Positions 31,486 to 49,702 are shown, counted from the first letter of the stretch. The stretch is DNA of 64,000 bases from Candidatus Altimarinota bacterium (GCA_963677745.1 OY782391.1:480001-544000), one strand, 5' to 3'. The notes: generated by a model not told the origin, from the sequence alone. Translations and numbers: made by a program.

Positions 31486-31744
31486 TTTACTAATTTCAGT
31501 TTTAGTGTATAACTACTCTGGATCGGACTCCCTGGGGAGACCGACCGGATATTTGACATCTTGGCAACAAAACCAAGATAAACAGAAGGAAAAATAGTAT
31601 GTGCGGATTTGGCCAATTAGACCGGCCAGTCCGACAAGGATAAGAAGCCCTGACCAAACGAGTCAGTAAGGCGTTCCCTGTCTTAACCGACTGGGAGCAA
31701 AACCACAACCCTCAACCTTTTTCAAATCTGAGGAGGTGATGCCA
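31486..31744 (+). promoter_or_regulatory. Putative promoter and structured 5' leader of the Cys-rich gene
   Basis: TTTACT-16-TATAAC (31486-31513); five hairpins in 31517-31698; AGGAGGTGA at 31731-31739. Confidence 0.55.
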
Positions 31745-31852
31745 ATGTGCAACACTGTGGTGAGCCGACGGTATCACCACGACATCCGGAGTCTATGCGC
31801 TGGCCATCCCGGCAGCGCGGTCACGAAAATACGAGAGGAGAGATTTCCATGA
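31745..31852 (+). CDS. Putative 35-aa leader peptide (uORF)
   Basis: MCNTVVSRRYHHDIRSLCAGHPGSAVTKIREERFP*; perfect SD upstream; stop overlaps the next start (ATGA). Confidence 0.45.
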   Translation: MCNTVVSRRYHHDIRSLCAGHPGSAVTKIREERFP

Positions 31853-34800
31853 AATTGAAGAAGCGCGAATGGATGGCAGCGCTGATGATGGTAGCGCTGA
31901 CAGGACTGGTCATGACCCAGGCGGGGTGTGAATCGGATCCCCCCACCAGCTGCGACCCGGACAGCCCCTGGTGCAACGACAACACGGTGGACCCTGGGAC
32001 CGGCGGATCGGCCGGCCACCAGAACACCTGCACCTACCCGGAGAAGCAGTGCGGCGGCAACTGCACCAACGTTCTGATCGACAACCAGAACTGCGGAAGT
32101 TGCAACCTCACCTGCGGAACCGGCACCAACTGCCAGAACGGCGTCTGTGCCTATCAGTGTGTTCCGACCGGGCCCGAGACCTGCAACGGCAAGGACGACA
32201 ACTGCGACGGCCACATCGACGAAGAACTCCTGAACCTGTGCGGAAGCTGCGGGGTAGCTCCTGCGGAGTCCTGCAACGGGATCGACGACAACTGCAACGG
32301 CAGCGTCGACGAGGACTGCGAATGCCAGGGAGACGCGATCAAGCCCTGCGGCAGCAACCTCGGAACGTGCTCCACCGGCGTGCAGGAATGCATCAACGGC
32401 ATCTGGAGCCTCTGCTCCGGTGTAGCTCCCGCGGTGGAGACCTGCGACGGGCTGGACAACAACTGCAACGGGCAAGTGGATGAGAACCTGCTGAATGCCT
32501 GTGGCGGCTGTGGCATCGTCCAAGCCGAGCTCTGCGATGGCCAGGACAACAACTGCGACGGCCACATCGACGAAGGCTATCTCAATTCCTGCGGCGTGTG
32601 TGGACCCTTGCCATCAGAGAGCTGCAACGGCCTCGACGACAACTGCGACGGCATCGTCGACAACGGGCTCCTCAATGCCTGTGGAAATTGCGGTGCAACT
32701 CCGTCCGAGACCTGCAACGGGATCGACGACAACTGCAACGGGCAGGTGGACGAAGGACTCCGCAATCTCTGCGGAACCTGCGGTCCCCCTCCCGCCGAGA
32801 TCTGCGACGGCGTCGACAACGACTGCAACGGAACCATCGACCAGGGATGTCCCTGCATGACGGGGCTGACCCAGCCCTGCGGTAAGGATCTGGGAGTCTG
32901 TACCTCGGGTACCCAGACCTGCGTCGGAGGAACCTGGGGAACGTGCTCCGGTACGCCCCCTGCTGTCGAAGTCTGCGACGACGTGGACAACAACTGCGAC
33001 GGGAATGTCGACGAAGGGCTGAAGAATGCCTGTGGAGGCTGTGGCCCGACTCCCGTCGAAGTCTGCAACGGCGCGGACGACAACTGCAATGGCATCGCGG
33101 ACGAAGGTCTGCTCAACCAGTGCGGCAACTGCGGGCCTCTGCCCGCCGAAGTCTGCAACGGCGCGGACGACAACTGCGACGGCATCATCGACAACGGATT
33201 GTTGAACCGCTGCGGCAACTGCGGGCCCCTGCCCGTGGAAACCTGCGACGGGAACGACAACGACTGTGACGGAATCGTGGACAACGGCCTCCGCAACCTC
33301 TGCGGGAACTGCGGTCCCTCCGATCCTGACCTGTGCGATGGCGTCGACAATGACTGCGACGGCACTGTGGACCCGGGATGCCCCTGCATCACCGGTTTGA
33401 CTGAGCCCTGCGGCAAAGATCTGGGAGTCTGTACCTCGGGTACCCAGACCTGCGTCGGAGGAACCTGGGGAACGTGCTCCGGTACGCCCCCTGCTGTCGA
33501 AGTCTGCGACGGAGTGGATAACAACTGCGACGGGAATGTCGACGAAGGGCTGAAGAATGCCTGTGGAGGCTGTGGCCCGACCCCCGTCGAGATCTGTGAT
33601 GGTGTCGACAACAACTGCAATGGCATCGCGGACGAAGGTCTGCTCAACCAGTGCGGCAACTGCGGCCCCCTGCCCGCCGAGATCTGTGACGGGGTCGACA
33701 ACAACTGCAACGGCATCATCGATGACAACCTTCGCAACCGCTGCGGCAACTGCGGGCCCCTGCCCGCCGAAGTCTGCGACGGCGTCGACAACGACTGCGA
33801 TGGAACCATCGACAACGGATGTGGCTGCCAGACCGGAGCCACCATGCCCTGCGGCAAGAACCTGGGCACCTGCACCACCGGCCAGCAAGCCTGTGTGGCA
33901 GGACAGTGGACCCTTTGCTCCGGCACACCCCCCGCTGTCGAAGTCTGCGACGGCGTGGACAACAACTGCGACGGAAATGCCGACGAAGGCGTGAAGAACG
34001 CCTGCGGCGGGTGCGGCCCGACCCCCGCCGAGATCTGTGACGGGGTCGACAACAACTGCAACGGCATCATCGATGACAACCTTCGCAACCGCTGCGGCCT
34101 CTGCGGGCCCCTGCCCGCCGAAGTCTGCGACGGCGTCGACAACGACTGCGATGGAACCATCGACAACGGATGTGGCTGCCAGACCGGAGCCACCATGCCC
34201 TGCGGCAAGAACCTGGGCGCCTGCACCACCGGCCAGCAAACGTGTGTGGCAGGACAATGGTCACTCTGCAGCGGCGTCGAAGCGGTCTCCGAGACCTGCA
34301 ACGGCGTCGATGACGACTGCGACGGTGACGTGGACGAAGGTCTGCGTAACCGCTGCGGCAACTGCGGAGCATTGCCGGCCGATGTGTGCGACGGCGTCGA
34401 CAACGACTGCGACGGCACCATCGACAACAACTGCCCCTGTCAGACGGGGGCATCCAAACCCTGCGGAACCGACACCGGTATCTGCACAACCGGGACGCAG
34501 AATTGCGTTGCCGGACAATGGGGACTCTGCTCGGGCGTCGCGCCTGGAGTGGAGACCTGCGACGGACAAGACAACAATTGCAACGGGCTGAGCGACGAAT
34601 ACTTGCTCAATGCCTGCGGCAACTGCGGTCCGGTCCCCGCCGAAACCTGCAACGGCATCGACGACAACTGCAACGGGCAGATCGACGAAGGCCTGCGCAA
34701 CGCCTGCGGCAACTGCGGCCCCGCCCCGGCCGAGCTCTGCGACGGCGTGGACAACAACTGCGATGGAACCATCGACAACGGATGTGGCTGCCAGACTGGA

Positions 34801-35760
34801 GCCACCAAGCCCTGCGGTACGAGCACCGGAGCCTGCACCACCGGAACACAGAACTGTGTCAGTGGACAGTGGAGCCTCTGCTCCGGCACCGAAGCGGTTC
34901 CCGAAACCTGCAACAACATCGATGACAACTGCGACGGTATCATCGACAACGGCCTGCGCAACGCCTGTGGCACCTGCGGTGCGCCACCGGTGGAGATCTG
35001 CGACGGCATCGACAACAACTGCGACGGGCATGTCGATGAGAACCTGCGCAACCGTTGCGGCAACTGCGGGCCCCTGCCTGCTGATGTCTGTGACGGCGTC
35101 GACAACGACTGCGACGGCACCATCGACAACAACTGCCCCTGCCAGGCCGGGGCGACCATGCCCTGCGGTACGGACATGGGAGCCTGCACCACAGGAACTC
35201 AGAGCTGCATCGCCGGTCATTGGGGACTTTGCAACGGCGTGGCCCCCACTCCCGAGACCTGCAACAACGTCGACGACAACTGCGACGGACACGTGGACGA
35301 GTTCCTCAGGAACGCCTGCGGTAACTGCGGAGTCATCCCCGCCGAGACCTGCAACGGCATCGACGACAACTGCAACGGGCAGATCGACGAAGGCCTGCGC
35401 AACCGCTGCGGCAACTGCGGGGCCCTCCCTGCTGATGTCTGCGACGGCGTCGACAACGACTGCGACGGCACGATCGACAACGGCTGTTCCTGCCAGTCGG
35501 GAGCAATCCTGCCCTGCGGGAAGAACCTCGGAACGTGCTCCACCGGCAACCAGTTCTGCGTCGGTGGACAGTGGAGCCTCTGCAACGGCAACGGCCCCAC
35601 GATCGAAGTCTGCGACGGCGCGGACAACAATTGCGACGGACTGGTCGACGAGTTCCTTCGCAATGACTGCGGAACCTGCGGTACCGTCCCCGCGGAGTTC
35701 TGCAGCGATGGTCTGGACAACAACTGCAACGGGCTGACCGACGAGCCCGGCTGCATCTGA
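31849..35760 (+). CDS. Giant Cys-rich repeat lipoprotein (MopE-related metal-binding motif repeats; myxobacterial-type Cys-rich N-domain)
   Basis: GAGGAG SD before ATG 31849; signal MKLKK...TQAG-C; 32 ExC[DN]GxD[DN][DN]C[DN]GxxD motifs; about 175 Cys in 1303 aa (hand count). Confidence 0.9.
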   Translation: MKLKKREWMAALMMVALTGLVMTQAGCESDPPTSCDPDSPWCNDNTVDPGTGGSAGHQNTCTYPEKQCGGNCTNVLIDNQNCGSCNLTCGTGTNCQNGVCAYQCVPTGPETCNGKDDNCDGHIDEELLNLCGSCGVAPAESCNGIDDNCNGSVDEDCECQGDAIKPCGSNLGTCSTGVQECINGIWSLCSGVAPAVETCDGLDNNCNGQVDENLLNACGGCGIVQAELCDGQDNNCDGHIDEGYLNSCGVCGPLPSESCNGLDDNCDGIVDNGLLNACGNCGATPSETCNGIDDNCNGQVDEGLRNLCGTCGPPPAEICDGVDNDCNGTIDQGCPCMTGLTQPCGKDLGVCTSGTQTCVGGTWGTCSGTPPAVEVCDDVDNNCDGNVDEGLKNACGGCGPTPVEVCNGADDNCNGIADEGLLNQCGNCGPLPAEVCNGADDNCDGIIDNGLLNRCGNCGPLPVETCDGNDNDCDGIVDNGLRNLCGNCGPSDPDLCDGVDNDCDGTVDPGCPCITGLTEPCGKDLGVCTSGTQTCVGGTWGTCSGTPPAVEVCDGVDNNCDGNVDEGLKNACGGCGPTPVEICDGVDNNCNGIADEGLLNQCGNCGPLPAEICDGVDNNCNGIIDDNLRNRCGNCGPLPAEVCDGVDNDCDGTIDNGCGCQTGATMPCGKNLGTCTTGQQACVAGQWTLCSGTPPAVEVCDGVDNNCDGNADEGVKNACGGCGPTPAEICDGVDNNCNGIIDDNLRNRCGLCGPLPAEVCDGVDNDCDGTIDNGCGCQTGATMPCGKNLGACTTGQQTCVAGQWSLCSGVEAVSETCNGVDDDCDGDVDEGLRNRCGNCGALPADVCDGVDNDCDGTIDNNCPCQTGASKPCGTDTGICTTGTQNCVAGQWGLCSGVAPGVETCDGQDNNCNGLSDEYLLNACGNCGPVPAETCNGIDDNCNGQIDEGLRNACGNCGPAPAELCDGVDNNCDGTIDNGCGCQTGATKPCGTSTGACTTGTQNCVSGQWSLCSGTEAVPETCNNIDDNCDGIIDNGLRNACGTCGAPPVEICDGIDNNCDGHVDENLRNRCGNCGPLPADVCDGVDNDCDGTIDNNCPCQAGATMPCGTDMGACTTGTQSCIAGHWGLCNGVAPTPETCNNVDDNCDGHVDEFLRNACGNCGVIPAETCNGIDDNCNGQIDEGLRNRCGNCGALPADVCDGVDNDCDGTIDNGCSCQSGAILPCGKNLGTCSTGNQFCVGGQWSLCNGNGPTIEVCDGADNNCDGLVDEFLRNDCGTCGTVPAEFCSDGLDNNCNGLTDEPGCI
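32173..35757 (+). repeat. Intragenic mosaic array of 90-bp (22x) and 171-bp (9x) units
   Basis: 30-aa/4-Cys and 57-aa/8-Cys modules; near-identical DNA at offsets of 531 nt (32887 vs 33418) and 351 nt (33673 vs 34024). Confidence 0.92.
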
Positions 35761-35985
35761 CCATCAACAAGAATCATCGTCGCGCGCCATTCGCCGCAGC
35801 GAATGGCATACCGGTTCCCCCACTGACGCAGCAGCAAGGGAGCCCTTCACCCCAAAACCCGCCCCGTCGCACTGAGACGTCGTCTCTCGCGACGGGGCAC
35901 CGACCGTCGGCTGAAGCTTCTCCGGACTGACGAGCAGGATCTCACATCCCGCTCCTTCCGGACAGGCCACAGCCGCAAGAACCAG

Positions 35986-36027
35986 AAAGGCCGCTCACCC
36001 GCGTCATACGCGGGTAGCGGCCTTTTT
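35986..36027 (+). terminator. Intrinsic terminator of the Cys-rich unit
   Basis: AAAGGCCGCT-c-ACCCGCGT-cat-ACGCGGGT-AGCGGCCTTTTT. Confidence 0.85.
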
Positions 36028-36047
36028 GCTGTCCGGATTTAATTTAC

Positions 36048-36086
36048 AAAAAGCCCCCGCGATCACCTTGTGACGCGGGGGCTTTT
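36048..36086 (-). terminator. Intrinsic (bidirectional) terminator of the SLH gene
   Basis: AAAAAGCCCCCGCG...CGCGGGGGCTTTT. Confidence 0.85.
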
Positions 36087-36106
36087 CCATAAAGTATCAC
36101 GCTATA

Positions 36107-37378
36107 TTAGATCTTTCCCAGATTATGCAGTTTGTATATCACTTCTGCCACTTCGCGGCGGGTAGTGAAATTGGTGGGATACAATTTTGTCCCGCTGAAC
36201 AAAGCGTTGTTTTTGGAATACTTGGCATAATCGGCATACCAGGCGTCCGCGGGCACATCGGTATAAGAAGTGCCGGTAGGCATTATTTCTCCCAGATTGC
36301 GGAGCAGTAGAGCCAGGAACTCAGCCCTGTTCACCGATCTGGCCGGTCTGAAATACCCGGCATCGGGTCCGGACAGATAACCGGTAACCACCGACAAAGC
36401 CTTGGCACGGCATACATACTGATAAGCCCAACTGGACTCGGTTACATCCGGAAAAGGATTGCTGCCGGCACAATAATCCGATACCGAGTTGAAATTATCG
36501 AAAGTTTCCAAAGCAATTTTGGCAATCTGATCTCTCTGCAACAAACCTCCCGGATCAAAAGTGCCGTCGGGATTTCCGGTTATGGCACCGATACTCTTTA
36601 CATAGGAAATAGCGGCACAGTCACTGTCCACCAATGAAACGTCGGTAAAACCTGCACATTTAGTCAGGATTGGCGGAGTGTTGATGGTAAAAGAAGGAAT
36701 AGTCAAAGCATCGCTCGTATTGCCGGACAGATCGGTTACCCTGACTTTACAATTACTGTAGGTGCCCGGAAGCATCGACTGGAACGTGACTGAGTTGTCC
36801 CCGCTCACCCCATTGGTAGTTGAACTGGAACAGGCTCCCTCATAAGTAATTGTCCCTGCTTCATTGGAGTTAAAAACTATGCCTGGAGTAGTATCGTCGG
36901 TCGGGCTACTCACTCCGCTCACCAGAGTCAGTGTGGGAGCGGTAATATCAATAATCATATTAACCTTGACCGTGAAGGCGGCAATATTCAAATTATCCGA
37001 AGTCAATCCGCTGACTGTGCCCTTCACGGTTAATTTGCAGTTTGTATGGGCTCCCAAGGCCAGAGAATTGAAAGTAATAGTATTGTTTCCCGACACCGCG
37101 TTGACGGTTGCACTGGAACAGTCACCGGAATAGGTGATTGTTCCGGCCTGGGTGCTGGAAAAGGTAAAATCCGGAGTCTTGTCATAAGTTACAGCGGGAA
37201 CAGGAGTAACCACGGCCAGAGTCGGAGCGACAAAAAGAGGTAACTGGGGATCAAAAGGAATTTCGGGAGTAATCGGATATGGATCGGGCAATTTTGCCAT
37301 AGCCAACATCTGCATGGAAAAAACACCAATCAAAACCATCGACACCAGCGCTATCTTTTGGAAAGGGAATCTATTCAT
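36107..37378 (-). CDS. Secreted protein with two Ig-like repeats and SLH domains
   Basis: Signal peptide; duplicated PTL...D.TP...F.S..AGTITY.G.CSS...NCK unit; FTDV/FPDV/YTDV, VNRAE, TTRRE. Confidence 0.85.
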   Translation of the reverse strand: MNRFPFQKIALVSMVLIGVFSMQMLAMAKLPDPYPITPEIPFDPQLPLFVAPTLAVVTPVPAVTYDKTPDFTFSSTQAGTITYSGDCSSATVNAVSGNNTITFNSLALGAHTNCKLTVKGTVSGLTSDNLNIAAFTVKVNMIIDITAPTLTLVSGVSSPTDDTTPGIVFNSNEAGTITYEGACSSSTTNGVSGDNSVTFQSMLPGTYSNCKVRVTDLSGNTSDALTIPSFTINTPPILTKCAGFTDVSLVDSDCAAISYVKSIGAITGNPDGTFDPGGLLQRDQIAKIALETFDNFNSVSDYCAGSNPFPDVTESSWAYQYVCRAKALSVVTGYLSGPDAGYFRPARSVNRAEFLALLLRNLGEIMPTGTSYTDVPADAWYADYAKYSKNNALFSGTKLYPTNFTTRREVAEVIYKLHNLGKI

Positions 37379-37495
37379 AATAATTAAAATTATGTGATTA
37401 CATACAATTAAACCACTATTTGGGAAAATAGTTACGATTCTCTATTTGACAAAAGACGGGAAAGACTTAAAATCCTGGCCGAATCACCATCGAAA

Positions 37496-38017
37496 ATGAA
37501 AGCACTGGCAAAACAAACCGATTTGGCTCCGGAACATTCTCAGGATCTGCAAACAGCAAATCCGGGAAAAGGAAAAACAACATCTCCCGAACCGTCTGAT
37601 TCGCAAATCCGCGTAAACACCCATGGCATCATCGAAGAAGTAGTTGGTTGGTACGACCATAACCAGCCTTCGATTATTCTGATCGCACCTGCCGAAATCG
37701 ACCTGGAAAGAAGTCTGGCCTTCAGAAAACGTCTTTTCAATATACTTAAAAACTCCTTTCTTAAACCGGCCTTTTCCTCCGATCCCGGATTTGCAGACCA
37801 TACAAATCATTGCTTATGGCTGCGCCACGACTTTCTGAACTATTTGTCAGGAATCATCAGTAATCCCGATTATGACCAGTATCTTCCCTCGGCCATCACC
37901 AGGAACATTTTCGATCAGGCAATGAACCTTGATTGGACTGCTCCCCGGGCAATAAAAAATCTGCTTCTGACCATCCGGCGCGATTTGATGATCCCTCCCA
38001 AAACCAAAAAAAAATAA
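37496..38017 (+). CDS. Hypothetical protein
   Basis: 173-aa ORF preceded by TTGACA-16-TAAAAT (37446-37473). Confidence 0.6.
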   Translation: MKALAKQTDLAPEHSQDLQTANPGKGKTTSPEPSDSQIRVNTHGIIEEVVGWYDHNQPSIILIAPAEIDLERSLAFRKRLFNILKNSFLKPAFSSDPGFADHTNHCLWLRHDFLNYLSGIISNPDYDQYLPSAITRNIFDQAMNLDWTAPRAIKNLLLTIRRDLMIPPKTKKK

Positions 38018-38692
38018 TTATTCCCCTGTAGCCTGTGCCATCTGTGGCTCGGCCTCTTTTGATTTGGGATTGGCTTTTGCATAAAGACCTACTGCCCGGT
38101 TGGCCAGCTGCGGCCATTTTTCCGCCTTCTCCGTTAACTGCCTGATCTTTTCTTCCGAAACTCCGGCCTCCCGCGCCTTCTTGATCATTTCCTGCGTTTG
38201 GTCCTCAAAACTTTTGGCACTCCATTTGTTGGCCTTGAAAAAATAATCGGCGGCATCCCCGGCAATCGGAATCGCTCCGACGGCAAAATCAGCGGCTTGC
38301 AAACCAATGATTTTTAGATAAGAACCTGTACCCAAGTCAGCCTTTTTGGCTTCCATTAAAAGATAGACTCCTGAAACGATCGAACTTCCTCCATCCCCCA
38401 ATTCCGGAATCAGAGAAAGCAGCGGATCCAGGCCAATATCATCAGCCACCGTCGCAAATACCTTGACCCTCTCTTCAGAGTTCTTGGCATCACGCAACTT
38501 TTTCAGAGCTTCTTGTTGTTGGGGAGTCAAATCCTCTTTTTCCACCTGCTGCTTCATTTTGTCCTGCTGCTCCTGGGACTTTTGTTTTACGGTCTGTTTG
38601 GCTCCTTCCCGGGTAATCTCCCCGCTCTCTATAGCCTGCTTGGCCCGGGGACCTCTCAGCACTTCTCCTCCCTGTTCAGTGGCATCTGCCAT
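38018..38692 (-). CDS. DUF4112 domain protein with charged terminal extensions
   Basis: GLDPLLSLIPELGD and D..VGAIPIAGDAADYFFKAN. Confidence 0.85.
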   Translation of the reverse strand: MADATEQGGEVLRGPRAKQAIESGEITREGAKQTVKQKSQEQQDKMKQQVEKEDLTPQQQEALKKLRDAKNSEERVKVFATVADDIGLDPLLSLIPELGDGGSSIVSGVYLLMEAKKADLGTGSYLKIIGLQAADFAVGAIPIAGDAADYFFKANKWSAKSFEDQTQEMIKKAREAGVSEEKIRQLTEKAEKWPQLANRAVGLYAKANPKSKEAEPQMAQATGE

Positions 38693-39391: not shown

Positions 39392-39425
39392 CATAATAGC
39401 CGCTTCCGGAATTGTCTTAGTCGGC

Positions 39426-41403: not shown

Positions 41404-42888
41404 ATGTATAAAAAGACTTTTCTTCCGTTGTTGGTTGCTCTGACACTGACTGCCTGCCAGCAACCTTCCATCGCCCCCGAACAGATTCAGCCGGAGGAGG
41501 AAGGACCGCCCCTTCTTACCGCTACCGTTCCCGGCGTCATCCCTCCGGAATTATTGGATCTGGCACCCGGTAAAGACGCTGAAGCTTTGATAATCGGCAA
41601 TCTTCCGGATAGTCTGGTTCAATCGGTTACCGACGAAAACATCAAAGCACAATTACAAAAACTAAAGGGAGGTGTTTTGGTGACCAAAAAAGACCCCCTC
41701 AAGCCCGGACTGCCGTATGTCTGGTTGGGAATAGTATTTCGTGACGAAGCAGCCGCTCAGGAAGCCCTGGATTTTTATCAAAAAAGCAGTTTCATCTCAT
41801 CTACCACCAAGGAACAGTTGGCCCTGGAAAGACAACAGAACCTCCTGGTCAGCAAAAAAGAAAATTCCGCCAGATTCCTTGGAAAATTGTCTGAACATTC
41901 GGAACTTTCAAAAATTACCGGCCTGACTCCCCAACCAATCTTCTTCGCCTACCAGAATTCGACGCGTATTCCCGAGCTCAATCTGACCCTGAAGTCACAG
42001 TCCCCCATCCTGATCGATCCCTTGAACAATCCCGACCTAAGCGCGGTTTTCAACGCCGCCACCTTCTCGGCCAAAGAGCTGACCACCCTCGGAGAATGGC
42101 AGGACAACCAACTCAAACTGACGGTCAAAGATGTTTTGATTTCCGACCAGAAAATACTGGGCAACCTGATGCTTTCCACACTTTTCCCTGCCAACAACAC
42201 CCAACCCGTAACCGAAGAACAAAAAACCTTCGTCTCCAGCACCGTCCAAAGCACCCTTGATGAATACAAGGAAGTTTACACAAACAAACTGTCCGCTGTG
42301 AAAACCTTTATTGAGCAGAAAAATTCCGAATACCCGGAACTGATTTCCCTTCTGGATTTAAAACCGGCCCAGCTTGATCTAACCTTGCTGGTAAAACCGC
42401 CGGCACTGGAAAATTTTTACGGGCAAATGGTTGCCGGATGGAATTACAATGAAAACAAAGCAAAGAACTACAATAAACAAACCATCCTAAGCGACATCAT
42501 GACCGCCCTGGACCAGTACCGGATACAAAACAACCGCTATCCCGAAAACGACGGCTGTCTGGAAAATGTTCTGGAAATCAAAACCTTCGTCAAAAACAAT
42601 GTTATTCCCAAAGATCCCCAAGGTCCCCAGAAATTCGGAGACACTCTTTGCAAAAGCGGATTTTTACTGCAAAAAATCAACGACGATAACTATATCCTCT
42701 GGGCAAAGACGGAAGGGGAAAAACAGGGTAACACCGAGTGGCCCGAAACTGACACAAGCGCCGGTAAAGGTAATTTCTATATAATCAAATTGGAATATCT
42801 GCCTGCTTTGGAACAACCGCTGCTCGAAGAACCTCCTCTGGAAGAAGAAGTGATTCCCAATAAGCCCAAGGTGAAAAGACCTCTCTAG
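41404..42888 (+). CDS. Lipoprotein with C-terminal GspG/pilin-like domain
   Basis: Lipobox LTAC; LSDIMTALDQYRIQNNRYP...IPKDP; acidic/Pro tail ending KVKRPL. Confidence 0.72.
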   Translation: MYKKTFLPLLVALTLTACQQPSIAPEQIQPEEEGPPLLTATVPGVIPPELLDLAPGKDAEALIIGNLPDSLVQSVTDENIKAQLQKLKGGVLVTKKDPLKPGLPYVWLGIVFRDEAAAQEALDFYQKSSFISSTTKEQLALERQQNLLVSKKENSARFLGKLSEHSELSKITGLTPQPIFFAYQNSTRIPELNLTLKSQSPILIDPLNNPDLSAVFNAATFSAKELTTLGEWQDNQLKLTVKDVLISDQKILGNLMLSTLFPANNTQPVTEEQKTFVSSTVQSTLDEYKEVYTNKLSAVKTFIEQKNSEYPELISLLDLKPAQLDLTLLVKPPALENFYGQMVAGWNYNENKAKNYNKQTILSDIMTALDQYRIQNNRYPENDGCLENVLEIKTFVKNNVIPKDPQGPQKFGDTLCKSGFLLQKINDDNYILWAKTEGEKQGNTEWPETDTSAGKGNFYIIKLEYLPALEQPLLEEPPLEEEVIPNKPKVKRPL

Positions 42889-42899
42889 AAAAACTTTTC

Positions 42900-43550
42900 T
42901 TATCCCCGTAAACTGGCAATCGCCCGCTTTCTGTCTGTTGCGCCGAATATATACGATCCGGCCACCAAAATATCCGCACCGGCCTGCCGGCAGATTTTGG
43001 CAGTTTCAGCATTTATGCCGCCATCCACTTCCACCAGTAACCGGGGACTCTTTTGTTTCAGCCATTTGATCTTCTCCACGGCCAGAGCGATGAATTTCTG
43101 TCCTCCAAATCCCGGATTGACACTCATCACCAGCACCATATCCAGCAAGGGCAAAATTGCCGAAAGACTTTCCACAGATGTCCCGGGATTTACCGCCACT
43201 GCGGCTTTCATCCCCAGCTCTTTGATTTTGGAAACCACACGGTGTAAATGCCTGCAGGCTTCCACATGAACTGTAACGGAAGCGACCCCGGCTGCTGCCA
43301 GATCATCCAGATACAACTCCGGATTCTCCACCATCAGATGGCAATCCATGGGCAGACGGGTCTTGATAAATTTTATTACCGGCGGACCAAAAGTCAGATT
43401 GGGTACAAAATGATAATCCATCACATCCAGATGGATCAGGTCGGCAAAAGGTTCTATCGAGGCAATCTCGGTGTTCAGTTTGCCGAAATCCGACGACAGA
43501 ACGGAAGGGGCCACCAGAATTCTCCTTTTTGATTTGTTAGAAACTGCCAT
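42900..43550 (-). CDS. rpe: Ribulose-phosphate 3-epimerase
   Basis: HLDVMDYHFVPNLTFG, DCHLMV, MSVNPGFGGQ, VDGGI. Confidence 0.98.
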   Translation of the reverse strand: MAVSNKSKRRILVAPSVLSSDFGKLNTEIASIEPFADLIHLDVMDYHFVPNLTFGPPVIKFIKTRLPMDCHLMVENPELYLDDLAAAGVASVTVHVEACRHLHRVVSKIKELGMKAAVAVNPGTSVESLSAILPLLDMVLVMSVNPGFGGQKFIALAVEKIKWLKQKSPRLLVEVDGGINAETAKICRQAGADILVAGSYIFGATDRKRAIASLRG

Positions 43551-43565
43551 ATTTATTTAATCTGA

Positions 43566-44054
43566 CTAAGAAACCTTCCCGTTATCGGAAACACCAGTGT
43601 TCTTCATCACCTGTTCGATCTTCTCGATACGACGCAAATGTCTCTCTTCGGCGTCAAACTTGGTATCAATAAACACATCGACAATCGCTTCGGCCAAATC
43701 GCGTCCGGTCAGTCTCTCTCCCAAACAAAGTACATTGGCATTGTTATGGGCCCTTCCCATGCGGGCTGTAATTTCGTTGTTGGCCAGTACAGCTCTGATA
43801 CCGTTTTTCCGGTTGGCAGTGATGGACATACCGACCCCGCTTCCACAGATCAAAATCCCCATTGCTCCCTTATTTTCCAAAACTTTTTCACACACTTCCC
43901 GGGCAATGTCCGGATAATCAGTGGAGTCATTGGTAAAAACACCCAGATCCAGCACGGAAGAATCATCCTTGCCCTGGAATTTCTGTTCCAGATAATCCTT
44001 AATCTCACGCTTCAGATTGATCCCGGCATGATCGGATCCCAAATAAACTTGCAT
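43566..44054 (-). CDS. rpiB: Ribose-5-phosphate isomerase B
   Basis: GSDHAG, DYPD, ICGSGVGMS, RAHNNANVL, RHLRR. Confidence 0.97.
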   Translation of the reverse strand: MQVYLGSDHAGINLKREIKDYLEQKFQGKDDSSVLDLGVFTNDSTDYPDIAREVCEKVLENKGAMGILICGSGVGMSITANRKNGIRAVLANNEITARMGRAHNNANVLCLGERLTGRDLAEAIVDVFIDTKFDAEERHLRRIEKIEQVMKNTGVSDNGKVS

Positions 44055-44140
44055 ATATTTTGTATTAAATTATGTTTCTATATATTATAACACCGAAAGT
44101 GGCTTGTTTGAAAGGACAAAAGCAATTACAGTCAATAGCG

Positions 44141-45079
44141 ATGAATGAAAACATAAATCTGCCAAAAATCTTCGGTGAATATCTGGAAAAGCTTGGAACA
44201 AAAGCCAAAAACCTGGTAGTACTTGATTCAGATTTAAGTAACAATCTCCACACTCTCTATTTTGCCAAAGCCTTCCCCGATCGGCATTTTTCCGTGGAAA
44301 TGGCGGAAAGCAGCCTGCCCGGCTTGGCAGCCGGAATGACCGTCCGGAAAAAACTGCCTTTTATCTGCGCCGAAGCCCCGGCTCTGTTGGGTAAAAGCCT
44401 GGACATGATCAGAAATTGCATTGTCTCCCCCCATCTCAACCTAAAAATAATTCTTTCCACGGTCGGCTTGAGCCGTATTGAAGATGGCCTTGCCAAAACC
44501 TGCACCGAAGACCTCGCTATTCTAGGAGCACTTCCCAATATTAAAATATTTACCCCCGCCGACCAGTTTGAGCTGAGAGCGATGATGGATTTCATGATTA
44601 ATGATTTCGGACCGACGGTTCTGCGTATTCCCAGGCACTGCAGGGAAAATCTTCACGACAGCAATTGTGTCTTTCGTCCGGGACAACCGGAAATAGTAAA
44701 AAAAGGAGAACAAATCTGTCTTATTTCATCAGGGGCAATTCTGCACGAATGTCTAAGAGCCGCTATCGACCTCGAACACAAAGGCCTCTCCACCCAAGTC
44801 ATCAATCTGTCTTCATTGAGACCCCTGGACTCGGAAAAACTGGCTGAACTCTGTCGGAACTGTGAACTGATCCTGACTGTGGAGGATCATAGTCTGCACG
44901 GCGGAATCGGCAGCAGGGTCTGTGAAATTATGCAACATTACGGAATTCCCAAAAAACTATTGAAATTGGGGCTGGATGGATTGCCTGAATGCGGCAAATA
45001 TCAGGAAATTCTTGGAAAATACGGTCTGGACGCCAAAAATATTTACGAAACAGTCCGTGAAAACTGGCTGAAAAATTAA
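44141..45079 (+). CDS. Transketolase C-terminal subunit homolog (degenerate active site)
   Basis: VVLDSDL, FPDR, AE...GLAAG, EDG, PAD, TVEDH...GGIGS; start moved to ATG 44141. Confidence 0.85.
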   Translation: MNENINLPKIFGEYLEKLGTKAKNLVVLDSDLSNNLHTLYFAKAFPDRHFSVEMAESSLPGLAAGMTVRKKLPFICAEAPALLGKSLDMIRNCIVSPHLNLKIILSTVGLSRIEDGLAKTCTEDLAILGALPNIKIFTPADQFELRAMMDFMINDFGPTVLRIPRHCRENLHDSNCVFRPGQPEIVKKGEQICLISSGAILHECLRAAIDLEHKGLSTQVINLSSLRPLDSEKLAELCRNCELILTVEDHSLHGGIGSRVCEIMQHYGIPKKLLKLGLDGLPECGKYQEILGKYGLDAKNIYETVRENWLKN

Positions 45080-45133
45080 ACCAAAGCGAAAAATCAACAC
45101 CAAGCCGTCCCTCCGGACTACGGAAGTAAACCT

Positions 45134-45673
45134 TTATAGCCAGCTGACTTTATCACCGGTTTTAATCCCCAGTTTGTCGGTCAGACCGGCGTTAACTTCC
45201 AAAACATACCTGGCCGGCATTTCCGAGCCGTATAAAAGACAGGCCTGATCGGACTGATCAACGCAAGGCAGAGCCTTTTTGGCAACGTGTTTGATATAAC
45301 CGCTCTCATCAATAAAAATCATATCCAGTGCGATCAGCGTGTTTTTCATCCAGAAATTCAGATAGCCCTGTTTCTCAAAAATAAACAGCATCCCTTTGTT
45401 TTCGTCCAGACTTTTTCTGTTCATCAAACCGACTTTCCGCTGGGCATCAGTGGCAGCCACCTCCACTTCCAGCTGATGGTTGTTATTTCCCGAAGTGATA
45501 ACCAGTTTTTTTACAGGCAAATCAACATTCATGATAATCGGGTCATTGTTAGCTTTGGTGTCGGCAGAATCGATCTTATAATCCAGACTGTCGGTCTTTA
45601 CTTCATTCCCGGGAATTATATTGCATCCTGTCAAAAAAAGCAGCAACGACATCAAAACAATTATTTTTTTCAT
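45134..45673 (-). CDS. DUF192 lipoprotein
   Basis: LTGC lipobox; EVA...GLMNR, GMLFIF, FWMKNT..LDMIFI, YVLEVNAG. Confidence 0.93.
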   Translation of the reverse strand: MKKIIVLMSLLLFLTGCNIIPGNEVKTDSLDYKIDSADTKANNDPIIMNVDLPVKKLVITSGNNNHQLEVEVAATDAQRKVGLMNRKSLDENKGMLFIFEKQGYLNFWMKNTLIALDMIFIDESGYIKHVAKKALPCVDQSDQACLLYGSEMPARYVLEVNAGLTDKLGIKTGDKVSWL

Positions 45674-45740
45674 AGAATTTTATTACTGCGCATAAATCTA
45701 AAACTATCGGCCGTTTTGTCAATATATATAGTATGGCCGT

Positions 45741-46205
45741 TTAGGGATAAATATAGCGTCCATAAATTTGATCAAGTCTGACATAAGGATAAACAAATGT
45801 GCGCGAATCTTTGCTATGGAAACGGTTATCCCCGAAAACCAGATACTCGCCGGAAGGTACCAGGAAAAAACGTTCATCTCCGTAATTAAAATGCTGTGCC
45901 ATCAAATAAGGTTCGGCCAAAACATCATAACCGCCTTCCTGATTTTTAATCATTACCTGATCAGCTTTGATTTTAATTGTTTCTCCCGGTAAGCCCACCA
46001 CCCTTTTGACGTAATAATATTGATCGTCAAAGCTAAAAACGACTATATCCCCCCGCTTCAGGGGATGATTGCCCTGAATCTGACGGTCGATCAAAAAAAG
46101 TTCCCGGTCGTGGAGTGTGGGATCCATAGACTGACCTTCGACCAAGAACGGACTAATAAACATCAATCTGGCTATCAGGACCGCACAAAACAAAAAACTG
46201 CTCAT
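45741..46205 (-). CDS. lepB: Signal peptidase I
   Basis: GQSMDPTL (Ser), YVKRVVGLPGE (Lys), GDNR..SKDSR. Confidence 0.93.
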   Translation of the reverse strand: MSSFLFCAVLIARLMFISPFLVEGQSMDPTLHDRELFLIDRQIQGNHPLKRGDIVVFSFDDQYYYVKRVVGLPGETIKIKADQVMIKNQEGGYDVLAEPYLMAQHFNYGDERFFLVPSGEYLVFGDNRFHSKDSRTFVYPYVRLDQIYGRYIYP

Positions 46206-46214
46206 TTTAATAAT

Positions 46215-47066
46215 TTATTCGATTTTTTTCTCCAGTGAAGCAAGCGCCTCAGCCAACTCTTCGCGACTCAGCGGCTGATCGTGATAAAAACTTTTATTCT
46301 CGGCAAAATCCACCCCCTTGGCTTTGACCGTCTTGGCAATTATGGCAACCGGCAGACGGGTTTCCACTACAGCTTTCTCCAGGGCTCCCAGCAGCTGATC
46401 AAAATCATGGCCGGCAAAAACATTGATGGTGCGAAACCCGAAAGCCTCCAGTTTATCGGAAAGCGGATCGGCAATGTTAAGATTTCTGACTATCCCGTCC
46501 TGTTGTATGCCATTTCTGTCCACCATCAGCACAAAGTTGCCCAGCTTGGCGTGTCCGGCCTCCAACAAAGACTCCCAGGCAGTGCCGTTAACCATCTCGG
46601 CATCGCCGGCCAGAACAAATACTTTGTTCCGGGAACGTTCTGCTTTGAGTGCCAGTGAAAGTCCGACTGCGCTGGCAATCCCCTGCCCGGCCAGACCAGC
46701 CGCCAGCGGTACACCGGGAATTTTCGATCTGGGCATGGCGGTAAGCAGAGCCCCGGTTGCCTTGAAATAATTAAGCTCATCAGCAGGAAAATAACCAAGA
46801 TCGGCCAAAATGGCATACCAGGCCGGTGCCGCACCGGATTTTGACAGAACAAAATAATCCTGTTCCCCGGAATTGGGGTTGCCTGGGTCAATATTCAGAA
46901 GCGGACCGGAAGAAGTTTGCCCATAGTAAAGCGCGGTCAGCAGTTCCACGCAGGACAAAGCGCTTCCCACAGCCCCCGACTCGGCAGCGGTAATCATTTT
47001 GAGAGTTTCTATCCTGATTTCGGTGGCCTTCCTCCGCAGAGCGGCCAGATATTCCTGAAAAGACAT
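46215..47066 (-). CDS. Transketolase N-terminal subunit homolog (degenerate active site)
   Basis: FVLSK, GQG, GDAE...WE, VDRN..Q.DG, GHD, TVKAKGV. Confidence 0.87.
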   Translation of the reverse strand: MSFQEYLAALRRKATEIRIETLKMITAAESGAVGSALSCVELLTALYYGQTSSGPLLNIDPGNPNSGEQDYFVLSKSGAAPAWYAILADLGYFPADELNYFKATGALLTAMPRSKIPGVPLAAGLAGQGIASAVGLSLALKAERSRNKVFVLAGDAEMVNGTAWESLLEAGHAKLGNFVLMVDRNGIQQDGIVRNLNIADPLSDKLEAFGFRTINVFAGHDFDQLLGALEKAVVETRLPVAIIAKTVKAKGVDFAENKSFYHDQPLSREELAEALASLEKKIE

Positions 47067-47197
47067 AATATTAATTTATCCAAAAGCAGGTTATATCCTT
47101 TGCTTCTGCCAGGCAAGACCTGCTTGGCAAAAAAGATAGTCTTGATGATGCCAATTTTTTACTTTAAAAGTATATCACCAAATAAATCTAAAAAATT

Positions 47198-47599
47198 ATG
47201 ATTGACGATCAAATCCAATTATCCCTGCAAAGTCTGAAAAAACTCCGGGAAGAACTGCGGGAAATTAAAAAAGACATCAAGGAAGAGGAAAAGATAGACA
47301 GTCCGGAATACCAGGATCTGGAAAAAGCACTAAAAGATTTGAAAAAACAGGTTAAGGATTTCAAAGATAAATGGATGTTGGAAATGCAAAGTGACGAGAA
47401 TTACAACAAACTCAGGGAAATCAAGATCAAGAAAGACGAGGAAATTGCCGAAGCCAACGAGAAATTATTTGAATTAATCTCCAAACTTCCCCCCAAACCG
47501 ATTGAGATGAAAATGGACACCGAGGAAGGACCGGTGCGCATTCAAATCATGCCGGAAATGAAACTTTATCTGAACGGACGGGAAGAAAAACGCCGCTAA
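47198..47599 (+). CDS. Hypothetical coiled-coil protein
   Basis: K/E-rich heptads; co-directional with the next gene. Confidence 0.75.
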   Translation: MIDDQIQLSLQSLKKLREELREIKKDIKEEEKIDSPEYQDLEKALKDLKKQVKDFKDKWMLEMQSDENYNKLREIKIKKDEEIAEANEKLFELISKLPPKPIEMKMDTEEGPVRIQIMPEMKLYLNGREEKRR

Positions 47600-47607
47600 T
47601 TACACCT

Positions 47608-48903
47608 ATGGCCAAAAAGCCACCACTTATTCCGGCCGAATCTGCCCCAGACACCATCGTCATTGTCGGTGGAGGAGCAGCGGGGTTGATGGCTGCCTAC
47701 TTTGCCAAACTGAAACATGCGAATTCGACGGTGATACTGGTTGAAAAAAACTCTTATCTTGGTGCTAAAATCCTCCTCTCCGGAGGCGGAAGATGCAACG
47801 TCACCACCGGCCTGCAATCGGTACCGGAAATCCTCAAAAACTACCCCCGGGGAGCTGATTTTCTGCGGACCGCCATGCAGCAATTCCCGCCCCGGGCCGT
47901 CATGGACTGGTTTGAATCACAGGGAGTCCCTCTTAAAACCGAGCCTGACCGAAGAGTGTTCCCGGTTTCCAACGATGGAAAAGATATTGTTAAAGCCTTG
48001 GAAAACGCACTTATCCAAGCCGGAGTAAAAATTCTGCGGAACCAGCAGCTGACATCGGTAGAAAATTTACCTGATCAAAAATTCAAACTCATTTTTAATA
48101 ACAGGCAGGATATATCGACAGACCGGCTGATCATTACAACCGGCGGCAATGCCTACCGGCAAACGGGATCAACAGGTGACGGTTACACCTTCGCCACTCA
48201 GCTGGGCCATCATATCACCCGTCTTTTCCCCTCCCTGGCTGCGCTAAGAACCTCCGAGGACTGGTCACATCAGTTAAGCGGAATCTCTTTCCCCTCGGCC
48301 GCACTAACCTTAAAAACATCCTCCCATGATTATCAGCGCCTGGGACCTTTTCTCTTTACCCATCAGGGTGTGACCGGCCCGGCCGTTTTTACACTCTCCA
48401 GCCTATCGGCCTTTGATACTATCGACCCCGGTAAACCCGCCCGCCTGTTCATAGATTTTTTCCCCGATCAAACGGCCGAAAAACTTTTACAAATGCTCGA
48501 TCAAAAAATTGACGCCAACCCCGGCAAGAAAACCGGCAATCTGATTGCCCTGTTTCTGCCTCATTCTCTCGCCGAAAAAATTGTGGACGTTCTTTTATCT
48601 CCGGCTTTTCCGGAAAAACAGTTGACCACAGTTAACGCCGCCAATCTGCCAAAAGCCGTACGGCGGAAAATTGTCGCCACTTTCAAAGAATTACCACTTA
48701 CCGTGATCAGCCGCAGTGCCGGCGATGAGTTTGTCACGGCGGGAGGAGTTGATATAAACGAAGTAAACCCGAAGACAATGGAATCACAGCTGCGCCCCGG
48801 ACTGTTCTTGGCCGGCGAATTGCTGGATATCGACGGTTTCACGGGAGGATTCAATCTGCAGGCCAGCTGGGCTACCGGTGCACTGGCCGGCGAATCAGTT
48901 TAA
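47608..48903 (+). CDS. HI0933/BaiN family FAD-dependent oxidoreductase
   Basis: GGGAAGLMAA, KILLSGGGRCNVT, TGSTGDGY, LFTHQG, VTAGGV, TGGFNLQ. Confidence 0.95.
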   Translation: MAKKPPLIPAESAPDTIVIVGGGAAGLMAAYFAKLKHANSTVILVEKNSYLGAKILLSGGGRCNVTTGLQSVPEILKNYPRGADFLRTAMQQFPPRAVMDWFESQGVPLKTEPDRRVFPVSNDGKDIVKALENALIQAGVKILRNQQLTSVENLPDQKFKLIFNNRQDISTDRLIITTGGNAYRQTGSTGDGYTFATQLGHHITRLFPSLAALRTSEDWSHQLSGISFPSAALTLKTSSHDYQRLGPFLFTHQGVTGPAVFTLSSLSAFDTIDPGKPARLFIDFFPDQTAEKLLQMLDQKIDANPGKKTGNLIALFLPHSLAEKIVDVLLSPAFPEKQLTTVNAANLPKAVRRKIVATFKELPLTVISRSAGDEFVTAGGVDINEVNPKTMESQLRPGLFLAGELLDIDGFTGGFNLQASWATGALAGESV

Positions 48904-49056
48904 ACATCTCCCGACAACAGAATGCAAAATAAACTTATCTTGCATTAAATTTGATAATGGGTAAAATCAGCACCTGCTCATAATCTGGCTGCAAAGTCAT
49001 GGTTATAGGGCGATCTTCGACAGGGACAGACAAACTGAGAGGAAGGGAAAATTCAC

Positions 49057-49626
49057 ATGAACTCGGTGAACGGAATTCATCACAACGACGTGCTGTACGT
49101 TCTGCAGCTGATGGGAGACTATGTGCGGGCGGGCAAACGGCCCAAGCCCAGCCACCCGGTCTCGATCAGGCTCTGCAAGCTGATCATCAGCGCCAACGTC
49201 TTCACGCTCTATTGTGAAGAAGTCAAGATGCGACTGGATGTGCTACACAACAGGTACAGCGACCGGAACCCGGTCGGTCTGAAACACCAGCAAATGGAGG
49301 AGTTTCAGCTGGTATTGCCTCAATACGACCGGCTTCACTCCGTCGCCCACGGGCTGGACATGTGGGAAAGCATGAACCCCGAGACCTTCGGCGCCAATGC
49401 TTTGGAGCGGATCAATCAGCTCCGGCATCTGGACAGGAACGTCTTCCAGCTGCTCATCAACAAGGGACTGACCCGCGAGTTGGCAGAGGATGCTCTGATC
49501 TTTTCCGGCCGTGAGCTGATTGATCCGGAGATGACCTGCTACCGCGACGTCCCCACTGAGTCCAGCCTCTTGTCCCCCTCGAACAGCACCGGGAGCAAAC
49601 GGGAAACCGACTGCTTCCGGCGCTGA
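49057..49626 (+). CDS. Orphan hypothetical protein in a GC-elevated monocistronic unit
   Basis: 189-aa ORF; purine-rich SD-like GAGGAAGGGA; upstream TTGCAT-16-TAAAAT (48940-48967). Confidence 0.65.
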   Translation: MNSVNGIHHNDVLYVLQLMGDYVRAGKRPKPSHPVSIRLCKLIISANVFTLYCEEVKMRLDVLHNRYSDRNPVGLKHQQMEEFQLVLPQYDRLHSVAHGLDMWESMNPETFGANALERINQLRHLDRNVFQLLINKGLTRELAEDALIFSGRELIDPEMTCYRDVPTESSLLSPSNSTGSKRETDCFRR

Positions 49627-49635
49627 CCAACCAAA

Positions 49636-49672
49636 CGCCGCCCTGCCGTCATAAGTGACGGGCAGGGCGGCG
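49636..49672. terminator. Strong GC hairpin between convergent genes
   Basis: CGCCGCCCTGCC-GTCA-taag-TGAC-g-GGCAGGGCGGCG; no clear U-tract on +. Confidence 0.7.
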
Positions 49673-49702
49673 CAATCCAATCTCTAAAATTCTATTTTAT
49701 CA

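Follow-up and report, generated by a model that had tools for sequence, protein, structure and literature searches.

Whether a sharply bounded GC-rich island marks foreign DNA or a resident class of messenger RNA is the question raised by two transcription units in a 64,000-nucleotide stretch of DNA (GCA_963677745.1 OY782391.1:480001-544000; hereafter the window, corresponding to positions 480001-544000 of the source genome, G000) from a Peregrinibacteria bacterium of the candidate phyla radiation (CPR). Unit 1 encodes a 1303-residue cysteine-rich repeat protein of the MopE type, and unit 2 a 189-residue all-helical protein. An earlier note on the window had described both as self-contained units sharing one layout, with a sigma70 promoter, a stem-loop at the predicted transcript start, a purine-rich Shine-Dalgarno (SD) sequence, a GC-elevated coding sequence (CDS) and strong 3' hairpins, and had offered two explanations, namely gene capture from a high-GC host or prey lineage and, more boldly, export of the mRNAs into a host cell. 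The analysis reported here leads elsewhere. The class of genes to which the units belong is real, conserved and unusual, and on balance we lean, by no great distance, towards resident, conserved genes whose mRNAs are stable and SD-dependent and encode envelope proteins that evolve fast, in a genome that is otherwise poor in SD sequences.

A gene class of high third-position GC with Shine-Dalgarno sequences

The source genome is a single contig of 1,335,835 bp with a GC content of 0.474 (1-kb windows genome-wide: mean 0.474, standard deviation 0.039), and its 1128 automatically called open reading frames (ORFs) have a mean GC at third codon positions (GC3) of 0.529 (standard deviation 0.072). 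Set against this baseline, about 13 curated genes with a GC3 of 0.71-0.82 stand out as a class, the edge of which is fuzzy (up to about 18 genes), and the GC-rich islands or GC3 outliers lie at nine dispersed places, at about 99, 511, 529, 625, 792, 806, 851, 914 and 1307-1311 kb. The candidate class that had been surmised from two examples was borne out when GC3 and SD sequences were scored genome-wide against the 16S 3' end, as the earlier note had proposed: the 13 or so genes combine high GC3, SD sequences, strong 3' hairpins and avoidance of poly-A runs.

An SD core of at least 4 nt precedes 12 of the 13 class genes and 45 of 1110 other ORFs (Fisher p 1e-15), and a core of at least 5 nt precedes 8 of the 13 and 10 of the 1110, respectively; SD-like cores arise by chance in 14.4% of 1032 windows placed inside class CDSs. 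In the automatic calls, an SD at the longest-ORF start was found in about 4% of genes (2-7% per bin) in all GC3 bins below 0.70, in 45% of the 11 genes between 0.70 and 0.75, and in 71% of the 7 genes at 0.75 or above. Across the genome, starts carry such motifs more rarely than random positions do, with a core of at least 4 nt at 4.7% of the 1128 longest-ORF starts versus 11.7% of random positions, and the 16S rRNA, ending ...CCTCCTTTCT, keeps the anti-SD CCTCCT. The observation that both units carry an SD in a genome where most genes have none was therefore correct, as was the naming of dinG as an exception: this native gene for an 895-aa protein with an exonuclease-like N-terminus (21431-24118; genome 501,431-504,118; GC3 0.55) is among the few ORFs outside the class with an SD core of at least 5 nt.

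Composition sets the class apart in other respects. Runs of five or more A are 13-fold rarer in class CDSs than in other CDSs (0.37 versus 4.81 per kb), in keeping with the description of both units, at a GC3 of about 0.80, as GC-elevated and nearly free of poly-A, and the leaders have a GC content of 53% (T 0.19) where native leaders have 34%. Two putative signals were rejected. There is no leader motif common to the class, since the SD-ATG block and the hairpin of the unit 1 leader each occur once in the genome and the leader word of unit 2 has one unrelated second match; and the TGA stop followed by CCA, which had been listed as a shared feature and is indeed present in both units, is seen in 2 of the 13 class genes, at 5 of the genome's 266 TGA stops and in no orthologue out of five, and is regarded as a coincidence.

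Signal-peptide or lipobox-like N-termini were seen by eye in 7 of the 13 class products, which include a collagen-like protein, an FHA protein whose FHA region is closest to GltG, a CDP-alcohol transferase-like membrane protein and Gly-rich lipoprotein-like proteins; one class member shares a DUF4215-bearing segment (PF13948) with Myxococcota proteins. Two Gly-rich lipoprotein-like genes stand in tandem (genome 913,698-915,652; L007:1698-3652). Each has its own TTGACA promoter, and downstream of each lies a 3' element of about 100 nt; the two elements are near-duplicates and close with the same hairpin (GCCCCGCG...CGCGGGGC). An 800-aa secreted member (genome 850,296-852,698; L006:1796-4198, minus strand) ends with a Gly-rich stretch that includes Cys, followed by a hydrophobic helix and RRRRQ. 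This end resembles a MYXO-CTERM sorting tail, and a relative of the protein, P0022, bears the source annotation 'MYXO-CTERM domain-containing protein'; no NCBIfam match for a MYXO-CTERM-like tail was obtained at E up to 0.01, nor any protein-atlas match. Lastly, a 179-aa lipoprotein-like protein with two MopE units (genome 1,031,471-1,032,010; L012:971-1510; GC3 0.71), one of them 76% identical to residues 900-949 of the unit 1 product, is likely to be a further, fourteenth member.

Anatomy of the two units and their residence in related genomes

For comparison, 40 relatives were searched for orthologues, among which G001 and G002 are congeners of the source organism and G004 belongs to a different genus. 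The significance of hairpins was judged from the fold energy against 200 shuffled sequences, and is given as z and as the count of shuffles folding as well. The features of the two units, together with one neighbouring hairpin, are as follows.

31447-31474, plus strand: promoter-like TTGACA-16-AAAAAT in the UvrB/MopE intergenic region (10 of 12 matches in the consensus scan; TTGACA block also in G002)
31486-31513, plus strand: predicted unit 1 promoter, TTTACT (31486-91)-16-TATAAC (31508-13), TAGTG before; conserved in relatives
31517-31549, plus strand: 5'-terminal stem-loop (-18.4 kcal/mol, z -2.96, 0/200)
31560-31577, plus strand: second leader hairpin, CTTGG-N8-CCAAG (by eye)
31730-31852, plus strand: leader element with a strong SD, GAGGAGGT (31730-37), an upstream ORF (31739-31852) and alternative helices
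31833-31842, plus strand: main SD of unit 1, GAGAGGAGAG, complementary to the 16S 3' end
31849-35760, plus strand: unit 1 CDS for a 1303-aa Cys-rich repeat protein (PF11617 match, repeats, syntenic orthologues)
35786-35898, plus strand: two internal hairpins of the 3' untranslated region (UTR), 35786-35807 and 35861-35898, in a C/A-rich, T-poor trailer
35983-36028, plus strand: intrinsic terminator, a long GC-rich stem followed by a T run (TTTTT) (-37.3 kcal/mol, z -7.8, 0/200)
36049-36086, minus strand: terminator hairpin of the SLH gene, not part of unit 1 (-29.5 kcal/mol, z -7.08)
48940-48967, plus strand: predicted unit 2 promoter, TTGCAT-16-TAAAAT, with a predicted start at about 48973
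48975-49012, plus strand: 5' stem-loop of unit 2 (alone z -1.16, 33/200, not significant)
49037-49048, plus strand: purine-rich SD of unit 2, GAGAGGAAGGGA, core GAGGA (G002 counterpart AAGGAGGG)
49057-49626, plus strand: unit 2 CDS for a 189-aa all-helical protein (GC 0.58, GC3 0.79)
49636-49672, plus strand: 3' hairpin of unit 2 between convergent genes, with NDK on the minus strand next (-33.3 kcal/mol, z -6.77, 0/200)

The product of unit 1 (CDS GC 0.64, GC3 0.80-0.81) matches PF11617, Cu-binding_MopE, with 461.1 bits (E 1e-141) over 25 stretches, the curated cut-off being 27 bits; the copper binding in this name is the family's annotation, and binding of metal (copper or calcium) by the repeat would be a putative property here. 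At the DNA level, 30 copies of a 90-nt unit (60-91% alike), with a 40-nt core likewise in 30 copies, are arranged in 351-nt super-repeats. The N-terminus, MKLKKREWMAALMMVALTGLVMTQAGC, is by eye signal-peptide or lipobox-like with a cysteine at position 27, but has Q at the -3 position, not L, V or I; the lipobox-like cysteine is kept in G001 (LLGC), G002 (IGGC) and G004 (QGGC), and the genome encodes both LspA (PF01252, 105.6 bits) and Lgt (PF01790, three matches above cut-off). The protein probably serves in attachment, and proteins of the MopE type were found in 17 of the 40 relatives. The gene adjoining unit 1 (36107-37378, minus strand) encodes an S-layer homology (SLH) protein (PF00395), 60-65% identical in the congeners, which places unit 1 in an envelope-related neighbourhood.

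The predicted sigma70 promoters of the earlier description are conserved in relatives, but both score below the threshold of the consensus scan, which lists TTGACA-16-AAAAAT instead at unit 1. TTTACT-16-TATAAC, which occurs once in the genome, is kept nearly base for base in G001 and G002, its -10 block TAGTGTATA(A/G)CTAC being present in G004 as well, and the predicted transcription start lies at about 31520; the -10 element of unit 2 is invariant in all three genomes that have the unit, with a -35 of TTGACA or TTGACT in the two congeners. The 5' stem-loops had also been part of that description. The one in unit 1 outfolds every one of its 200 shuffles, and hairpins of differing sequence occupy that position in G001, G002 and G004 (by eye). 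The one in unit 2 is not distinguishable from its shuffles when taken alone, but this stem recurs in the folds of all three orthologous leaders (consensus -14.0 kcal/mol), and the CATAATC/CCTAATC changes are matched on the 3' arm. The second leader hairpin of unit 1 aligns with ATTGG-N7-CCAAT in G002, both arms having changed, a weak case of two to three sequences only (by eye).

Farther along the unit 1 leader, the SD at 31730-37 heads an upstream ORF of 37 codons, whose TGA overlaps the main ATG (ATGA) in G000. Around this SD and its ATG, two helices that share a downstream arm are mutually exclusive: GGTGATGCC (31735-43) with GGTATCACC (31770-78), and GTGGTGA (31757-63) with TCACCAC (31774-80). 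A further helix joins GCGCTGGCC (31797-805) to GGCAGCGC (31811-18). The SD, its ATG and both alternative helices are kept in G000, G001 and G002, and because the peptide frame of the upstream ORF is not kept in G001, what is conserved is the RNA or DNA rather than the peptide; the element looks like a switch or a stabiliser. The main SD is likewise kept in G001, and has the counterpart GTGAGGAG in G002.

Downstream of the CDS, the trailer of unit 1 (A 0.21, C 0.38, G 0.26, T 0.15) contains the hairpins at 35786-35807 (z -1.96, 10/200) and 35861-35898 (z -3.59, 2/200), and blocks such as GACCGTCGGCTGAAGC recur in the trailers of G001 and G002 (by eye). It closes with the terminator, where a terminator scan gave a match at 36011-36035, and equivalent hairpins close the G001 and G002 trailers. 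The 3' hairpin of unit 2 lacks a clear T run on the plus strand and has an equivalent in G002 (GCCGCCCTG...CAGGGCGGC). The strong 3' hairpins of the proposed layout are thereby upheld in both units (z -7.8 and -6.8). The same can be said of the compositional shift, which does follow the transcript boundaries: GC is 0.31 in the unit 1 promoter (31360-31520), 0.52 in the leader (31521-31848), 0.64 in the CDS and 0.64 in the trailer (35761-36028), peaking at 0.657 (1-kb windows, 31501-36500) over a stretch of about 4.5 kb, beyond which the sequence is AT-rich again (genome non-ORF average 0.40). No Rfam 15 covariance model matched the UTRs, leaders or trailers of either unit; the sole match in 31000-50000 (E up to 1) is a tRNA at 41310-41383 (65.5 bits), more than 5 kb from either unit.

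Unit 2 is the more obscure of the two. Its protein has no Pfam, NCBIfam or protein-atlas match and no signal peptide was seen; a word-based homology search returned only the protein itself. The AlphaFold2 model has a pLDDT of 66, and a Foldseek search of this model against the PDB gave no match at E of 0.001 or below, the top one being a TetR/SlmA-like chain (E 0.097, TM 0.30). Among the 40 relatives, only the two congeners have orthologues, and a profile built from the three orthologues retrieves 12 proteins among 1.84 billion representatives.

The organism itself is assigned to the candidate phyla radiation because its S5 gene directly adjoins the L15 gene (window 1-707; genome 479,507-480,707) with no uL30 gene between them, an arrangement that is a hallmark of such genomes. 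From 36107 to 52504 the gene order matches that of G001 and G002, protein identities being 50-91% for the neighbours, 31-32% for MopE and 36-40% for unit 2, and in G004 a UvrB gene (84%) is again followed by MopE (57%). The orthologues are as deviant as the units themselves, with a GC3 of 0.83, 0.84 and 0.86 for MopE and of 0.73 and 0.69 for unit 2 between flanks of GC 0.40-0.55. Synteny was checked for units 1 and 2 only; four further class genes that were tested have orthologues in relatives that are likewise GC-rich, and for three class genes beyond the two units these orthologues were placed at eight loci in four relatives (GC3 0.67-0.83), five of the loci with an SD-like motif upstream. 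At four-fold sites of conserved residues, native genes in the G000-G002 comparison are identical at 0.39-0.46 versus 0.26-0.34 expected, and UvrB is identical to that of G004 at 0.32 versus 0.26 expected; for the high GC3 to be a passive relic, the ancestral GC3 would have to have been 1.16-1.69, an impossible value. With synonymous sites thus nearly saturated, the high GC3 has to be a state that is kept up rather than one left over from a transfer, and both units are most likely resident, vertically inherited genes.

The possibility that the genes were lately captured from a donor of high GC, for instance a host or prey organism among the Myxococcota, should nonetheless be weighed, given that the atypical base composition and codon usage (GC 0.64 versus 0.47; GC3 0.80 versus 0.53) and the use of SD sequences unlike resident genes are what it would lead one to expect. 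In a survey of MopE outside the family, 474 of 598 candidates were confirmed and 80 loci kept, one genome per species; by title reading these comprise 38 Myxococcota-type, 9 'Deltaproteobacteria', 3 Bradymonadia-type, 2 Bdellovibrio-type, 4 CPR and 3 archaeal loci, so that the domain family is indeed commonest in Myxococcota, where DUF4215 relatives are found too. The best segment identity among the 80 is at most 50%, however, and no close donor homologue of unit 1 was found among them, although absence from a collection is no proof; the nearest MopE relatives lie in the organism's own family, and unit 2 is confined to a family of 12 members. Against capture there also stand the equally GC-rich syntenic orthologues with conserved promoters and leaders in two congeners and, for unit 1, in another genus, as well as the saturation of synonymous sites between these genomes. 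MopE moreover prefers C to G in its Ala and Thr codons as resident genes do (in MopE likewise for Pro and Val; third positions C 0.62, G 0.19, A 0.09, T 0.10). The absence of mobility marks remarked upon at the outset was confirmed, for the neighbours are UvrB, the SLH-domain protein, an HI0933-like flavoprotein and NDK, all repeat families at unit 1 fall within 32051-35744 with no flanking direct repeats, and neither mobility genes nor an adjoining tRNA were found at the units. As a recent event, the capture that the earlier note took for the plain explanation is consequently very improbable. An ancient transfer of the MopE and DUF4215 building blocks, older than the family, is possible.

By their titles, the MopE-repeat relatives (L023-L102) are concentrated in predatory or cell-contact lineages (Myxococcota, Bradymonadia, Bdellovibrio-type), and they occur also in ultra-small symbiont lineages (Peregrinibacteria/Patescibacteria, Aenigmarchaeota). 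This distribution gives a hint that such proteins have a common part to play in contact between cells.

A subtler form of transfer is repeated replacement by xenologues from a shared high-GC pool, the locus being kept while its body is renewed in each lineage. It draws on the finding that the G000 MopE is nearer to that of G004 (57%; segments 68-69%) than to those of the congeners (31-32%; segments 44-50%), and that module make-up differs between congeners: the G001 and G002 orthologues (L021:1262-4783; L020:14106-17936) consist mostly of another module, one matching G000 residues 74-126, and the 30-aa MopE unit dominates the G000 and G004 proteins. Differential expansion of repeat modules explains this pattern without any transfer, the low identity among congeners being attributable to module turnover and not to point change, and an N-terminal anchor motif, C(D/E)SNPP..C..G.P(W/F)C, is common to the MopE proteins within the genus. 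Furthermore, the GC-rich leader, upstream ORF and helices are conserved at the nucleotide level in the three congeners, which argues for vertical descent of the island's 5' part, and no candidate donor was found among the 80 loci. Replacement of this kind is held to be improbable. As for an assembly or binning artefact that joined foreign high-GC fragments, its probability is close to negligible. The sharp compositional borders might evoke one, and so might the repeat-gene interior, which is present only as short contig pieces with a few discordant joints, from which nothing was inferred; but contigs of three runs (X1, X2 and X4, from two studies) bridge both borders of the unit 1 island with 0 differences (for example, a 32,121-nt record over 30500-32299 and a 23,424-nt record over 35442-37000), and the same arrangement recurs in three other independently assembled genomes. 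At the island borders, the chimeric assembly once envisaged as a possible refuter thus falls away.

Transcript stability, biased conversion and export

Bacterial mRNAs in cells that have RNase J and RNase Y are protected against attack on the 5' end by 5' hairpins and by ribosomes that stay bound at an SD. Genes for both enzymes are present in this genome, and no RNase E/G gene turned up in it. If the class is what we suppose, each of its genes would be a self-contained unit with an AT-rich sigma-70-type promoter, a true SD, a GC-rich, T-poor and poly-A-free body and one or more strong 3' hairpins, to which a 5'-proximal stem-loop is added in both units studied. The 5' hairpin and the SD-bound ribosome would keep RNase J off the 5' end, the additional SD with its upstream ORF in unit 1 possibly doing the same; a body rich in GC and poor in U would leave RNase Y few sites to attack; and terminator hairpins would block decay from the 3' end. 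A structured GC-rich leader could not, on this account, use the A/U-rich, SD-less entry of native genes, and the SD would accompany the GC-rich composition because such a leader offers no unstructured A/U-rich entry site. The suggestion that these RNAs are tuned for stability and translation hence fits the anatomy (5' hairpins, SD sequences, RNase J/Y and no RNase E/G found), but for the second half of that suggestion, export to a host, no positive evidence emerged. Binding of CsrA to the GGA-rich leaders was considered and rejected, as no CsrA gene was found in the genome.

What holds the composition is a separate matter. Ordinary translational selection for high GC3 was rejected, since the ribosomal-protein, EF-G and EF-Tu genes have a GC3 of about 0.47-0.63 and MopE avoids the A/T-ending codons favoured by those genes (GAA, AGA, GGT and GTA). 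The UTRs of four genomes are GC-enriched and T-poor (T 0.13-0.18 versus A 0.21-0.32, with C exceeding G in the trailers), which gives a hint of constraint on the transcript, and GC falls sharply at promoters within multi-gene islands.

The most serious competitor to a class shaped by the needs of its mRNAs is GC-biased gene conversion at recombination hot spots in exchanged, repeat-recombining surface genes, with the SD sequences and hairpins as secondary adaptations. Recombining bacterial genes have a higher GC3, and the two units diverge much faster than any other gene of their syntenic block; MopE is an array of 30 repeat units whose copies are up to 90-91% alike, A and T are depleted symmetrically at its third positions, and the non-coding leader and trailer are GC-enriched as well. 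Strain variation in Peribacter is likewise reported to be concentrated in large Cys-rich extracellular proteins (PMC4736985). Symmetric conversion does not predict the strand-asymmetric UTRs of the four genomes; the sharp drop in GC at promoters inside islands also speaks against it, and unit 2 is short and non-repetitive, yet its GC3 is 0.79. We hold biased conversion to be unlikely, albeit deserving of serious consideration for the composition. With regard to the composition in itself, the data fit RNA-level selection and biased gene conversion equally and cannot separate the two. The wider proposition that this Peregrinibacteria family runs two expression regimes, an SD-less, AT-rich majority and a set of hairpin-capped, SD-dependent, GC-rich, U-poor mRNAs for the fast-evolving contact surface whose composition, over all that is transcribed and in the UTRs as well, is held by selection on RNA, is put forward only tentatively, and we would regard it as doubtful for the time being.

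Several points weigh against a resident class of stable, SD-dependent mRNAs. The starts of class genes were chosen by eye and those of native genes by the longest-ORF rule, a rule that underrates SD use among natives; when any start in the first 50 codons is allowed, natives reach 29% for a core of at least 4 nt and 9% for one of at least 5 nt. Most genes of the 0.70-0.75 GC3 bin in the automatic calls have no SD at the longest-ORF start, and the member at 850296-852698 is the sole clear class gene to lack one. Among 60-nt folds in the 300 nt that follow a gene, the best is stronger in the class (median -34.1 kcal/mol versus -18.9 kcal/mol in 200 sampled natives, p 1.4e-7), but this comparison is confounded by GC, and the hairpin at 36049-36086 illustrates that native genes too can have strong GC-rich terminators. 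The covariation evidence comes from three genomes, and the saturation calculation takes mutation in class genes to be like that in the genes around them. The near-equal depletion of A and T at MopE third positions (0.09 and 0.10) fits symmetric biased conversion and not specifically selection on the RNA strand. MopE, DUF4215 and GltG-like FHA families are shared with outside lineages, so that an origin by transfer at some depth is conceivable. Finally, the proposed stability mechanism is carried over from other RNase J/Y bacteria, and the transcript starts, ends, half-lives and expression are predicted from sequence.

Export of the mRNAs for translation in a host cell was the boldest proposal for these units, and self-contained, hairpin-bounded units with canonical SD sequences and a base composition that departs from that of other genes, in a presumably symbiotic lineage with a small genome and no uL30 between S5 and L15, might be thought to invite it. 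No export machinery or precedent was identified, however, and 7 of the 13 products carry, by eye, ordinary signal-peptide or lipobox-like N-termini. As the cell has its own LspA and Lgt, nothing requires translation elsewhere, and as its 16S rRNA keeps the anti-SD, its own ribosomes can use the SD sequences of the class. A simpler explanation within the cell covers every feature, and export is given at most the slightest of chances.

Comparison with known systems

The protein side of the class has forerunners. Unit 1 (PF11617, E 1e-141) and the class member with the PF13948 DUF4215 segment are of the same kind as MopE or Myxococcus-type Cys-rich proteins, from which unit 1 differs in that its identity to anything outside is at most 50% in the best segment. 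Within the phylum, Peribacter riflensis (Peregrinibacteria) has been described as having large Cys-rich extracellular proteins with a weak likeness to Myxococcus repeats, which are proposed to act in attachment and vary between strains, and these belong to the same phylum-level lineage as unit 1 (PMC4736985). Unlike the genome studied here (0.474), Peribacter genomes average 58.5% GC, and no compositional anomaly, SD usage or leader structure comes up in the passages retrieved from that account (PMC4736985). Another paper reports that bS21 has often been lost in this clade and gives anti-SD statistics for CPR bacteria (PMC9297842). A literature search brought up no paper on a GC3/SD gene class in CPR bacteria; the Cys-rich extracellular proteins are hence known, and the conserved GC3/SD class is apparently undescribed.

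Compositional outliers are routinely read as horizontal transfer, and the interest of the present case lies in outliers that are deviant in the same places past synonymous saturation, with the deviance tied to a switch in translation start. The genes so picked out are Cys-rich, repeat-rich exported proteins of the kind already suspected of attachment in this phylum. Should the family indeed run two expression regimes, a compositional island would mark a functional class of mRNA and not foreign DNA. The result is in any event a caution to annotation pipelines that label such islands foreign. The class also offers a system in which to ask whether composition is held by mRNA selection or by biased gene conversion, how SD-poor bacteria use a retained anti-SD, and how ultra-small symbionts express and diversify proteins that probably touch other cells.

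Three known phenomena come nearest to what is described here. Known 5' stabilisers of mRNA include 5'-terminal stem-loops and STAB-SD elements such as that in the Bacillus thuringiensis cryIIIA leader. As a candidate for this group, which is defined by function, unit 1 has in common with them a hairpin at the predicted 5' end and a strong SD (31730-37) well upstream of the main start in an RNase J/Y host, but unlike STAB-SD its upstream SD heads a short ORF and could be sequestered in a conserved helix. Horizontally acquired islands are recognised by their sharply distinct composition, which ameliorates over time; the units share with them a sharp compositional border and deviant codon usage, yet are equally deviant in their syntenic place across the genus or family beyond synonymous saturation, and have neither mobility genes nor att repeats. 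Lastly, in SD-poor genomes such as those of Bacteroidota few genes keep an SD. The present genome resembles these in keeping the anti-SD in its 16S rRNA while SD sequences are depleted below chance upstream of most genes, and differs from those known in that its SD-bearing minority is a compositional class, made up mostly of genes for exported proteins.

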